64,000 nucleotides of DNA. Source: Escherichia phage vB_EcoP_WFI101126. Location: sequence record NC_070991.1. One strand, 5' to 3'. Below are positions 19,752 through 64,000 of this stretch, one piece after another (position 1 is the first letter of the stretch; each line of letters opens with the position of its first letter). The notes beneath the pieces are model-generated. The model had not been told where the DNA came from. It made no database searches and saw nothing but the letters and a program-made list of their open reading frames with translations. The position numbers and the translations under genes were made by a program.

Positions 19752-20165
19752 TTATATGAATTTCTGCATACCTTTGATACGAGGGTTATCATCACCAACT
19801 CTCGATTTACAGTAAGCGATAAAAGATTCAGTATTGAGGTTATCCTTTTGAGAACCCCACTGGAGATTGTCTGCTCTATTGTTGCTCGGATTATCATCCA
19901 GATGCATAACAACAGCGTTAGGAAAAGGTTTCTCACCATGAAAAATCTCACACACTAAGATATGAATCCTTTTCTTAAACTTTCTTTTCCTGTTTACAAA
20001 CACCATTCTTCCATCTTTCTCTCTATATCCGCTATATGGTTTTCCTACGAAAAGCCTAACTCCACCATTATTCGTTATGGCTGTGAAAGGCTTAATCTTA
20101 ACTCTACCAAAAGATGATACGGAAAGGAAATCATAATAGGGGTGATCTTTCCAGACTTCTTCCAC
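19752..20165 (-). CDS. HNH homing endonuclease
   Basis: HLDDNPSNNRADNLQWGSQKDN HNH core. Confidence 0.7.
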   Translation of the reverse strand: MEEVWKDHPYYDFLSVSSFGRVKIKPFTAITNNGGVRLFVGKPYSGYREKDGRMVFVNRKRKFKKRIHILVCEIFHGEKPFPNAVVMHLDDNPSNNRADNLQWGSQKDNLNTESFIAYCKSRVGDDNPRIKGMQKFI

Positions 20166-20174
20166 TATCTATCC

Positions 20175-20921
20175 TCAAAATGGGCTATCGTTGTCGTCTT
20201 CGTAAGTAGAGGCAGGCTCTTTATCAATCGTAGGGATTGAAGGAGTAGCTTCTTTCTGCTCTGTTTCAGAAGCACGAGTAATTTCACGACCAGCCAGAGG
20301 CATGTTCTTAGCGTCATTAGCTTGAGTAAGCAGGTTGCGCTGGAACGGGAACATCAGTTGATAAGATGCTACGTTCTCATCGGTTTCAGCATACGGTTCG
20401 AAGAATACCAGAGGACTACGAGCTTCACCAACTGCTGCACGATATTTGGTTGGGATTGGAGAAATGGTCTTGATGGAGTTTTTAACTTCACCAGCTTTGT
20501 TAGTATAAGAGTTAACCAGAATGTTAACAGGCTGGCCTAACAGAACATCCTTGAACCAAGACAGATCACCTTTCAGTGCTTGAATACTTGGGTCAATCAT
20601 CTTGCAAAGATCAAGAATACCAGAGTTCTTAGCTCGTGGGTTTACATCATAGCTCTTGAACTGGCAAGCCGGACGTGGTTCTAATGCCTTACCATCGGAA
20701 TCTTTACCAGTAGCATCAACACCAATCAGCTCGAAAGCTAAATCCATACGGAAAGCTGGATTCTTAGGAGTTACTGCTTTGGTCTTCGGGTCAATCCAAG
20801 GGTCACGATTGTGAACACCCAAACCTACTACACGAACGATACGTGCTTCGTACTCACCATCAGGGATTACATCGTAGTTGGATTTACGGGAAGCAGTTGC
20901 GATAGTTGGAATCATAGACAT
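20175..20921 (-). CDS. ssb: single-stranded DNA-binding protein
   Basis: Acidic C-terminal tail ending DDNDSPF (compare SSB DDDIPF); position in replication cluster. Confidence 0.5.
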   Translation of the reverse strand: MSMIPTIATASRKSNYDVIPDGEYEARIVRVVGLGVHNRDPWIDPKTKAVTPKNPAFRMDLAFELIGVDATGKDSDGKALEPRPACQFKSYDVNPRAKNSGILDLCKMIDPSIQALKGDLSWFKDVLLGQPVNILVNSYTNKAGEVKNSIKTISPIPTKYRAAVGEARSPLVFFEPYAETDENVASYQLMFPFQRNLLTQANDAKNMPLAGREITRASETEQKEATPSIPTIDKEPASTYEDDNDSPF

Positions 20922-20980
20922 ATTTTAATTTCCTTATTTAATTTGAAAGATTGTTGCTCTCTTTGAGCGGTTATGTATAG

Positions 20981-20989
20981 TATACATTA
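20981..20989 (-). promoter_or_regulatory. phage-type promoter motif (TAATGTATA on - strand)
   Basis: Exact 9-mer 59 nt upstream of SSB start. Confidence 0.4.
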
Positions 20990-21052
20990 CGCTTATACCG
21001 ATAAGAGTACTATATAATATAAGTATCTTTGGTAGTAGATATAACACACTAG

Positions 21053-21061
21053 TAATGTATA
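21053..21061 (+). promoter_or_regulatory. TAATGTATA motif on + strand (orphan / antisense)
   Basis: Exact 9-mer in 416-bp AT-rich intergenic region; no + strand ORF downstream. Confidence 0.25.
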
Positions 21062-21337
21062 TATTGTATAGCTGATAAAGTTATTGCAGGCTTGTATATT
21101 GGGCAATTCACAGAATCCCTTGCAAGTACCGAAGGGCAGGAGCCACCTGCGAGATAAAAATAGAGAATTAAGGAATCCTTGATTTAGGTTGTAGGGACTC
21201 CTAGGGACTTTGATTCTCTATTTAAAAGAATATTAATTACTTATTACCTAAATAATTAACTAACTTACTTAAACCAAATTCAAGAATAATAGATAAAAAG
21301 ATTATTCCTAAGAAAGCTAAAAAGTAAAGGATATAAG

Positions 21338-21502
21338 TTACCATTCAAGTAAACCTTTAAAGTTAGTTTGTTCTACTATCCTCTGATAACGAAGATTAGA
21401 ATCAGCTTGTTTCTTTAACATCTCATTATATTGATCTCTGATAGAGTCTTTATATACTACAGGTTCTTTAAATAATGAGATCTTGTTCTTTTCTTCTTTC
21501 AT
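21338..21502 (-). CDS. small hypothetical protein
   Basis: Internal Met start chosen to limit overlap with phosphoesterase gene. Confidence 0.3.
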   Translation of the reverse strand: MKEEKNKISLFKEPVVYKDSIRDQYNEMLKKQADSNLRYQRIVEQTNFKGLLEW

Positions 21503-21971
21503 CAAAGACCTTCCTAATCTCTTGCAGAGAAACAGCTTTATAGTTAATTTGCTCCATTGATGTACAGAAATATCTCCAATCATCAATTACATGGTTATGA
21601 GTATGAGCATAAATATTAAACTTCCCTCTCATCTCGTCAGTGTGAATAGGAATATGAGTTACCCAAAACTCTTTATATTTATAATCACCAGAGATTCTAC
21701 GGAATACTTTCATCATATCGGGGAGAAGTTCTAACCTGTCATGGTTCCCCAAGACCAGATGCTTCTCTCCTTTTACTTCAGCGATGATATCAAGGGCATA
21801 CTTTTCAAACACCCAATCACCGGTAAAGAAGATTTTATCACGCTTAGTTACATGATCAAATGCAGCTAGGATTGCTTTGTCATGCTCTTCAATGTTTTTA
21901 AATTGCTTACGAAAACTACAGATGTTGCGATGACCTAAGTGACCATCTCCTGCAAAATAAACTTCAGCCAT
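21468..21971 (-). CDS. metallophosphoesterase (calcineurin-like phosphatase)
   Basis: GDGHLGH, GDW, GNHD and HTHNH metal-ligand motifs in canonical order. Confidence 0.75.
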   Translation of the reverse strand: MAEVYFAGDGHLGHRNICSFRKQFKNIEEHDKAILAAFDHVTKRDKIFFTGDWVFEKYALDIIAEVKGEKHLVLGNHDRLELLPDMMKVFRRISGDYKYKEFWVTHIPIHTDEMRGKFNIYAHTHNHVIDDWRYFCTSMEQINYKAVSLQEIRKVFDERRKEQDLII

Positions 21972-21980
21972 AAAGACCTC

Positions 21981-22196
21981 TTAGATAGTGCACCCGTCAC
22001 AAGTTAAATCACCTAGAAGGGATAGAGAAAGTAATCTGGATTGCTCATCACTGTATAGTTGATCAATCTCTTCTTTAAGTTTTGCCAACTCCATGAAATT
22101 GATAAGTTGACCATGTTCAAGACAGTCTGTTTTTAGTATAAACAAAACTTCAGCGTCTGTTGAATCTTCACTTGAATATTTATCAATGTATTCCAT
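21981..22196 (-). CDS. hypothetical protein
   Basis: ORF track; acidic small protein. Confidence 0.3.
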   Translation of the reverse strand: MEYIDKYSSEDSTDAEVLFILKTDCLEHGQLINFMELAKLKEEIDQLYSDEQSRLLSLSLLGDLTCDGCTI

Positions 22197-22351
22197 TTTT
22201 ACTCCTATTAATTATGACCAAGATTTAGCTTTCACTTCGACGTATGTTTTAACTTCACCTTTCAAAACTTCCTGAGAAGCATTTGCACTTTCCTCAGAGT
22301 GATGTACAACGGTGATCTCTTTCTTTCCAATCTTATAAGTGTGAATCCAAA

Positions 22352-22519
22352 TCATACTTCTTCCTTATATTCCCAATTTCTTTCATAATATCCAGAGTTA
22401 TAGTTTAGGGCGCACTTCTCGGCCTCTTCTATGTCGTCAGTGTTTAGGATATTTACCCATCCTCCAACTTCATCAAAACCTTCCTCTACTTCGTTAAACC
22501 ATACACTATATTTCTTCAT
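22352..22519 (-). CDS. hypothetical protein
   Basis: ORF track, internal Met start. Confidence 0.25.
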   Translation of the reverse strand: MKKYSVWFNEVEEGFDEVGGWVNILNTDDIEEAEKCALNYNSGYYERNWEYKEEV

Positions 22520-52605: not shown

Positions 52606-52681
52606 TGGTGCGCCCTACAGGACTCGAACCTGTAACCAATAGCTTAGAAGGCTACTGCTCTATCCATTGAGCTAAGAGCGC
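52606..52681 (-). tRNA. tRNA-Arg (anticodon UCU), CCA encoded
   Basis: 76 nt; 7-bp acceptor stem with one G-U, D-arm GCTC/GAGC, anticodon loop CTTCTAA, T-arm ACAGG-TTCGAGT-CCTGT, 3' ACCA. Confidence 0.85.
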
Positions 52682-55652: not shown

Positions 55653-55949
55653 TTAACCTTCACTGTTAATCTCCTGCTGCTTAGCAATAGCCACTCGCAA
55701 ATCTTCATTAGCACGAGTGAGGCGCAATACTTCATGATTGAGGCTCTGAAGACGCTTGTTTCTGTCTTCAACTTGCATAATAAGATCGTTAAGTGTTACT
55801 TTAACTTTCTCATTATACATCTCATCCACTCGGACTAGAGATTTATACATTCTTTCCCAGCTTGCTGCTTTGTTTCTGAGAACAATAAATCCTATAACGC
55901 TGATAGTTAAACAGAGTACAAAAAGGAATTTATATACTTCTAAAGTCAT
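55653..55949 (-). CDS. membrane-anchored coiled-coil protein
   Basis: N-terminal TM helix then heptad-rich region. Confidence 0.35.
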   Translation of the reverse strand: MTLEVYKFLFVLCLTISVIGFIVLRNKAASWERMYKSLVRVDEMYNEKVKVTLNDLIMQVEDRNKRLQSLNHEVLRLTRANEDLRVAIAKQQEINSEG

Positions 55950-56149
55950 ATCATTTTACCCTTTATCAGAGATTAAAAGTAATATTATTTAAGTAAGTTA
56001 TATTTAGTAAACTTATTTTCTAAGAAATTTTCAAAGGGTCTATATACAGAGCATTACCCATAGTCCCAGAATACTACCATCTTTTTCAATAAATTTACTA
56101 AGTGGTTGGTTTATAAAGGAATTTAGTTTGTCAAATCTGGCACTAGTGA

Positions 56150-63336: not shown

Positions 63337-64000
63337 CCATTTATTTTCTAACTTTCTTGCATCTTACTGAAAACTGAAGGAATTTAATTTACTAAACTTC
63401 CCATACTCAGAGAATCAGCTTACTGACTATTGTTACTTTATAACACTAATCCTACGGGTAGCAGACCAACATACCAGGACAAACGGGGATACAACAACCG
63501 CAGAACAGACCACGGGGAAACATAGCCAGATAGTGCGGTAATAATATACCACTTAAATAATTAGTTAACTATTAATAGCATTACTCAAACATCAAAGACG
63601 TTCGTACTTCGTACTCACAAAGGCACGCTGAAAAAGAAAAGAATAAACATCAATTATTAAAAGAAATATAATCATCCACTTAATTAATACATACATCATT
63701 ATTGCACTCATAATCATTACTATTGAAACTATTTACATTCAAACTATGGGGAGTGGTGGCTGTCATTAATGGCATTATTAGTCTGCTAATTAGTGCAGCA
63801 CAGTGCTAGCCGCTTCCCGCGTGTTTCCTAAAAAGGGGGAGTCCTCATTTAAAAAAGGGTTATTGGCAATGCCTTTACCTTCCTTTTCAACGTTCCACCT
63901 TTCCCCGTGCCTACTCCCCGTAATTATTTCCCCGTGTATACCATCCTATTCATTAGCTACCCGTTTATTTAGTTCCCCTTTAGAGAGTGAGAGAAAGGCT

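Follow-up and report, generated by a model that had tools for sequence, protein, structure and literature searches.

We propose, with moderate confidence and from the sequence and its relatives, that the 315-bp non-coding gap upstream of the SSB-like gene (20922-21236) houses a small RNA gene, so far unannotated, whose structured product would be transcribed from a middle promoter of the P68 type. The initial annotation had read this region either as an origin of replication or as a source of antisense or non-coding RNA, and the non-coding RNA half of that reading turns out to be the better supported, because a hairpin at the predicted +1 (H1) covaries, the + strand folds better than the - strand and the block is more conserved than the coding DNA beside it; for the antisense alternative, no base-pairing target was found.

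The window, meaning the whole 64,000-nt stretch analysed here, belongs to a phiEco32-like coliphage of the genus Kuravirus (Gordonclarkvirinae). Its closest relative is Escherichia phage Ptacy1532, with 99.8% identity over 2.5 kb around the gap, while SU10 and others share 96-98% identity over the same 2.5 kb. Every gene neighbouring the gap is encoded on the - strand (Table 1), and the gap belongs to the replication module, in which the SSB-like gene, the DNA polymerase and the exonuclease are close by. The region had been described as 416 bp of intergenic DNA flanked by an SSB gene, and both parts of this description hold only partially. A non-coding gap does exist, but it is confined to 315 bp, the DNA beyond it being occupied by the phi32_41 homologue, which matches PHROG 24970 (E=2.7e-24), has a GC content of 21% and begins with an ATG that shares bases with the upstream ORF's stop codon (ATGGTAA). 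In EcoN5 the phi32_41 homologue is shortened, and Paul, XT18, ECBP2, TH34, Bas86, NC-B, EK010 and LAMP lack it. About half of the relatives examined thus have no intact copy, and in these the RNA block is kept. As for the SSB gene, the name "ssDNA-binding protein" comes from the annotation of one record, but searches of the protein against Pfam and PDB sequences returned no match, and PHROGs lists its family as function unknown. The protein has an acidic C-terminal tail (...EDDNDSPF), and it is on this tail and the one annotation that the SSB label rests. Directly downstream of the SSB-like gene lies an HNH endonuclease ORF (19752-20165, -) which Ptacy1532, SU10 and some others carry and which phiEco32 and most relatives lack; in most relatives the matches begin at query base 180. 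The ORF probably encodes a mobile homing endonuclease.

Table 1. Features in and around the gap, with positions in the window.
Feature	Position	Strand	Basis or remark
phi32_40 homologue, SSB-like gene	20175-20921	-	ATG at 20921, RBS 20929-20936
Leader hairpin GCUC-AAAGA-GAGC	20956-20968	-	near 5' end of predicted P40 transcript
P40 -10-like element	20981-20989	-	exact TAATGTATA; known gp36-dependent middle promoter
Imperfect inverted repeat	21003-21029		by eye from alignment; between both promoters, overlaps P40 -35 region
+ promoter, -35-region element TTGGTAGTAGATAT	21029-21042	+	positions -39 to -26; 14-mer identical to that of P68
+ promoter, -10-like element TAATGTATA	21053-21061	+	exact match; predicted start A21068
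H1, 6-bp hairpin	21068-21084	+	RNAalifold; starts exactly at predicted +1
Variable middle domain	21089-21130	+	alignments; type A in window, a single irregular hairpin
H3, hairpin GCAGG-AGNCA-CCUGC	21136-21150	+	stem invariant; only loop base varies (C or A)
H4, long irregular hairpin	21158-21223	+	contains direct repeat TAGGGACT
phi32_41 homologue, 35-aa hydrophobic ORF	21237-21344	-	annotated in phiEco32 and Ptacy1532
phi32_42 homologue	21338-21502	-	homology
Metallophosphoesterase	21468-21971	-	homology

Promoters that depend on the phage sigma factor gp36 share the consensus tAATGTAtA (PMC8948821, PMC12276001), with the AATGTA core centred at -11.5 (PMC12276001). In a cryo-EM study of 2025 on the gp79/gp36 open complex at P68, base-specific contacts were described at -37G, -34A, -14A, -13A, -12T and -11G, and the first two of these are made by the C-terminal domain of gp36 (PMC12276001). 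Exact copies of TAATGTATA number four in the 64 kb of the window against 0.58 expected, a count that none of 100 shuffles reaches, and when one mismatch is allowed the number is at chance level (17 found, 20.6 expected). Comparison of the flanks of all motif matches brought out a shared 14-nt upstream element, and the resulting bipartite pattern, TTGGTAGTAGATAT-N10-[T/A]AATGTATA, a match of 23 bases, occurs at exactly two sites in the window, 21029-21061 (+) and 32861-32893 (-), where 0.00 are expected. The second of these is P68, since its counterpart in phiEco32 lies between genes 68 and 69; phiEco32 too carries the + strand copy, beside gene 40. With +1 placed at A21068, the contacted bases fall on G21031 (-37G), A21034 (-34A), A21054 (-14A), A21055 (-13A), T21056 (-12T) and G21057 (-11G), so that six of six contacts are present. 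Across 20 distinct variants, drawn from isolates and metagenomes, the two elements hardly vary (-37G and -34A kept in 20/20, the + strand TAATGTATA intact in 19), and the spacer between the -35 and -10 elements, 10-12 nt long, varies freely. A single metagenome contig (L031) has TAATATATA in place of TAATGTATA, a G to A change at -11 (the equivalent of 21057), and the RNA block downstream of it is intact.

The + strand site thus appears to be an unannotated gp36-type promoter and a twin of P68, with predicted activity. The two have in common the 14-nt element of the -35 region, the 10-nt length of the spacer, the AATGTATA core and the six contacts, and they differ in the first base of the -10 element, which is A in P68 and T here. 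They also differ in setting: P68 stands before a protein gene and runs with the gene cluster, whereas the + site is oriented against it, with no ORF following. An origin by duplication of a larger P68 region was considered and rejected, as the similarity stops at the limits of the promoter. The primary promoter-mapping paper for phiEco32 is reportedly that of Pavlova et al. in 2012 (J Mol Biol 416:389). Six gp36 promoters have been mapped, upstream of phiEco32 genes 6, 13, 26, 40, 58 and 68 (PMC4331800, PMC8948821, PMC4281155), and the + strand promoter appears to be unreported among the six given in two of these papers (PMC8948821, PMC4331800), although the original mapping may have noted or tested the site. 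One promoter search covered the gene-orientation strand only (PMC4331800) and would therefore miss it.

The leftward motif of the gap is already known. By position and sequence, the - strand TAATGTATA is the published P40, and it differs from the phiEco32 promoter in nothing; P40 does not have the full P68-type -35 element. The element lies 60 nt upstream of the phi32_40 homologue, its start is predicted at about 20974, and it is kept in all relatives of the alignment. The gap therefore contains two back-to-back promoters whose predicted starts are 94 bp apart, and in this respect the divergent phage-promoter motifs of the initial annotation are borne out on both strands, as exact matches at 20981 (P40, leftward) and at 21053, the latter being part of the full bipartite P68-type match with its -35 contacts. 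P40 itself lies in a near-palindrome (20971-20989, TTATGTATA-G-TATACATTA) which creates a one-mismatch copy of the motif on the + strand at 20971; this copy is probably incidental, because it is not conserved in SU7-type relatives.

Several further observations concern the DNA around the two promoters. The leader hairpin of the SSB-like gene, which lies a few nt past the predicted P40 start, is invariant in all Kuravirus-type relatives, and other hairpins, GUCCA/UGGAC and GUUCA/UGAAC, occupy the leader position in distant relatives (L028-L030). The leader may have an autoregulatory or stabilising role. An Rfam search of the leader for the DUF2815 RNA motif gave 14.3 bits (E=6.9) in one locus only (L010), below the threshold of 41.2 bits. 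The imperfect inverted repeat lies upstream of both predicted starts, and its upper stem, as judged by eye, changes from TACT/AGTA to TGCT/AGCA in KBNP1711 and EP335 and reads AAGGTT/AACCTT in the SU7 type, an apparent compensation. Phages of the ES17 type (ES17 itself, L011, 708-851; also L020 and L031-L035) have an inserted 47-aa basic ORF on the - strand, beginning MKFNHKYAATEKARAYV, which sits exactly between P40 and the + strand promoter, with its ATG abutting the conserved GGTAGTA of the -35 element.

What follows the rightward promoter is a conserved structured block of ~157 nt (21068 to ~21223, +), which begins at the predicted +1. The promoter does not precede a middle or late gene in its direction of transcription: no conserved + strand ORF lies downstream, as the initial annotation had remarked, and the only candidate, a 32-aa ORF with a TTG start (21084-21182), was discarded since it is frame-shifted by the 26-nt difference in length between the two forms of the middle domain found among relatives. 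Structure and covariance analysis, which had been suggested as a check, speaks for an RNA in part of the block. In H1, compensatory changes are found at two of the six pairs, one of which is C-G, U-A or A-U and another U-A or G-C, and the covariation score of 0.056 (0.027 in shuffles) is reached by none of 500 shuffles. When the partner columns are slid, pairing falls from 99.5% to 34-53%. Moreover, one pair of H1 is G.U in 10 of the 20 sequences, and on the - strand it would be an A.C mismatch.

The middle domain is modular. Type A, the form present in the window, is replaced in ECBP2, MN05 and ES17-like phages by type B, which has two hairpins and is 26 nt longer. Type B folds into a three-way junction with CGG/CCG as the closing pairs, and in ECBP2 one pair of hairpin B1 shows a compensatory change from U-A to C-G. 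The two types are unrelated, and both are hairpin modules between identical flanks. Type B is limited to 12 records of E. coli phages, and no source for it could be traced outside these phages. The 3' half of the block is made up of H3 and H4, whose 27 stem pairs are invariant and hence carry no covariation information either way. For H3 an alternative fold exists, in which CCUGCGA (21146-21152) pairs with UUGCAGG (21084-21090). H4 contains the short repeat that had been noticed near 21190, namely TAGGGACT at 21192-21199 and 21202-21209, in two copies only and with a period of 10; the apical loop holds one copy and the second belongs to the 3' strand, and in Paul-type phages both copies lack one G. 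The variant events in H4, counted by hand, fall mostly in loops or junctions (five of seven), with one A-U to G.U change and one that breaks the terminal pair.

Folding, too, favours the + strand. The block folds with -45.8 kcal/mol on the + strand (z -2.58; 1 of 200 shuffles as good) and with -35.3 kcal/mol on the - strand (z -1.52; 13/200), and of the cells that pair on one strand only, 51 favour + and one favours -. The same holds for H4 by itself, with a fold energy of -23.5 kcal/mol on + against -18.2 on -, and with two invariant G.U pairs that are possible only on the + strand.

Where the RNA would end is less clear than where it would begin. H4 has an A-tract on one side and a U-tract on the other, and the U-tract is better on the - strand, where the sequence after H4 is an invariant UAUUUUUAU, than on the + strand (UAUUUAAAA). 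In having a hairpin with A-tract and U-tract, placed between convergent transcription units, H4 resembles intrinsic and bidirectional terminators, but unlike these its stem is long, AU-rich and interrupted, with a 34-nt interior, and only 3-4 U follow it on +. A terminator scan of 20000-22500 on both strands called no terminator, H4 included, the d'Aubenton-Carafa rule, calculated by hand, is negative for H4 in both directions, and no clear + strand terminator is seen for several kb past H4. With no canonical terminator at H4 on either strand, the + RNA may stop there, may be processed at this hairpin, or may continue as an antisense RNA.

These properties of H4 bear on an alternative that we consider unlikely, in which the element acts on the - strand only. 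For the upstream operon (phosphoesterase, gp42, gp41), H4 would then serve to terminate the message, to stabilise its 3' end or as an RNase III-type processing site, the remainder of the block would be a long spacer before P40, and the + promoter would matter through its firing, by interference with P40 or by a supercoiling boost of it, and not through its product. Consistent with this, H4 lies just past the stop codon of gp41 and is followed on that strand by the better, invariant U-tract, all neighbouring genes are on the - strand, and the closely spaced back-to-back arrangement of the promoters is as such a reading would have it. Furthermore, the ES17-type - strand ORF is situated downstream of the element and seems to need read-through on the - strand across the whole of it. 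Against it stand the failure of H4 in the terminator scan, the weaker and less unusual fold of the - strand, and the fact that H1 covaries although half of the variants would have an A.C mismatch there on the - strand. A promoter needed only for its firing would also leave ~155 nt of near-invariant sequence and the modular swap unexplained.

A promoter-primed replication origin, which was the other half of the initial reading, is in our estimate improbable. Here the gp36 promoter on the + strand would produce a primer or activator RNA that enters the adjacent AT-rich DNA, in the style of T7, T4 or ColE1 RNA II, and the conserved hairpins would shape R-loop formation or serve as signals in single-stranded DNA. 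The primary origin of T7 and oriF and oriG of T4 consist of a phage promoter and an AT-rich unwinding element. The element resembles them in that a phage-specific promoter is followed by very AT-rich DNA in a replication region, and it differs from them in that ~155 nt of conserved, structured sequence lie between promoter and AT tract, and in that the tract is a non-conserved ORF. The tract at 21230-21330 is as AT-rich as had been claimed, with a GC content of 19.8% against a window mean of 42%, which places it among the six lowest of ~6,400 sampled 101-nt windows, but it is not intergenic, coinciding mostly with the phi32_41 ORF. Tracts at ~55900-56050 and ~63630-63740 share the lowest GC of the window (~18-22%) and may be early-promoter regions.

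In favour of an origin one can count the strong phage promoter directed at this low-GC tract, the lack of a gene in the transcribed direction, the location within the replication gene module and the conservation at the nucleotide level; as H4 is no strong terminator, transcription could enter the tract. Opposed to it is the loss or truncation of the AT-rich ORF in about half of the relatives, which nevertheless retain the RNA block, and the covariation of H1 together with the G.U bias, both of which indicate an RNA structure. The two 8-nt repeats inside H4, 10 nt apart, do not amount to an iteron array (at least three repeats, ~17-22 bp). The GC skew has its turning point at 15.7 kb, together with the switch in gene orientation, and shows nothing at 21 kb; it follows gene orientation and is hence uninformative on the origin. 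The DNA upstream of the homologous gene is short in 7-11 (~100 nt) and Privateer (~75 nt), and closer relatives have unrelated sequence at this place. A literature search on the replication origin or antisense RNA of phiEco32 gave nothing relevant.

Conservation of the block also counts in favour of the RNA reading. Identity in the 3' half is 92-100%, also in relatives whose neighbouring gene is only ~82% identical. In SU7, KBNP1711, EP335 and Bas86 the 3' domain of the RNA is 96.6-98.9% identical, compared with 81-83% for the first 560 nt of the neighbouring gene, and because of this difference the non-coding block seems either to be under stronger constraint than the adjacent coding DNA or to have spread by recombination. 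Its high DNA identity could thus stem from recent recombination or from a function at the DNA level. Far from lacking conservation in relatives, which the initial annotation had named as a ground for giving up its reading, the block is conserved beyond the DNA of the adjacent gene. It is confined to this phage group, the only one returned by pattern scans of viral and metagenome contigs, and a search with an nhmmer profile gave neither a further copy within the window nor a match in three relatives whose SSB-like protein is 67-70% identical; these relatives have a different spacer of 170 nt at the place of the block. In these uncultivated phages (L028-L030), a nearly invariant block of another kind, GGAAGCATCTAGCAAAGCTAGCATATCAAAGCTAAGCTAAGCTATATGC, with AGCTA repeats, stands ~60-130 nt upstream of the SSB-like gene, at the place of the Kuravirus element and without sequence similarity to it.

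It is very improbable that the + strand match is a chance or decaying P68 copy, with the conservation a matter of recent common ancestry: all carriers do belong to one subfamily, many being >95% identical overall, and one metagenome contig has lost the G at -11 to A, but a 23-base bipartite match is expected 0.00 times, the motif is invariant while its flanks diverge, the block is far more conserved than adjacent coding DNA in divergent genera, and the changes in its pairs are compensatory.

Searches for a known counterpart of the RNA were negative throughout. Against Rfam 15, with both strands, both domain types and permissive E-values, the best hits had E-values of 1.7-7.8, all far below the gathering thresholds, and a tRNA/tmRNA scan detected nothing in the gap region; a single tRNA gene, tRNA-Arg (anticodon TCT), is located elsewhere in the window at 52606-52681 (-). 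Mimicry of a host RNA was rejected, there being no similarity to the element in 5,426 E. coli genomes. Complementarity of the RNA to the rest of the window, in 10-12-mers, is at chance level, and the duplex energies with 187 translation-start regions are no better than in shuffled controls (best -41.6; mean of shuffled minima -39.4, sd 3.1). A decoy of the CsrA type, assessed by eye, was likewise set aside, for the RNA has four GGA against ~2.4 expected, and only one of them is in a loop.

Lambda OOP, P22 sar and the T4 stable RNAs are phage-encoded small non-coding or antisense RNAs. The proposed RNA is similar to them in being short, structured, promoter-proximal and free of an ORF, and in running from a phage promoter opposite to the neighbouring genes, whereas it has no sequence or Rfam relationship to them, would depend on a phage sigma factor and possesses a swappable internal domain. 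In addition, unlike the antisense RNAs of phages, its core overlaps no gene, and it is hence not an obvious regulator in cis.

Under the reading that we favour, of a small RNA gene, P40 serves the SSB-like gene and the sigma operon in the leftward direction, and at middle times the host RNA polymerase, equipped with gp36 and with the help of gp79, would initiate rightward at A21068. The product would be a non-coding RNA of ~157 nt, or ~183 nt in type B relatives, composed of H1, the swapped middle domain, the small H3 and the long irregular H4 with its direct repeat. H1, at the very 5' end, would be expected to stabilise the RNA. Since the loops and linkers of the 3' half are as conserved as the stems, and since no base-pairing target was found, we infer that the RNA would act by binding a protein or some other specific partner rather than by antisense pairing. 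On the opposite strand, H4 may in addition provide a weak stop or a processing site for the upstream operon. A bolder and decidedly doubtful extension is that the + RNA represents a new class of phage regulatory RNA, made by means of the phage sigma factor, in which the invariant 3' half would bind a specific host or phage protein and so sequester or recruit it, and the swappable middle domain would adjust the specificity, the target being for instance a host defence or an RNA-binding regulator.

The phage phiEco32 is a model for the takeover of host RNA polymerase by gp36 and gp79, and its transcription map contains six gp36 promoters, all of which stand before protein genes (PMC8948821, PMC4331800). 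Phages of the phiEco32 type are kept in therapy collections, and a conserved element that is unannotated is relevant to the engineering of their genomes. If the element were an origin instead, it would place the origin for a phage group without a mapped one found in the literature. If the proposed RNA gene is real, a seventh gp36 promoter, a near-exact twin of P68 with a conserved non-coding RNA as its product, would bring an RNA into this map, and it would offer a ready-made test case in which the promoter contacts are already defined.
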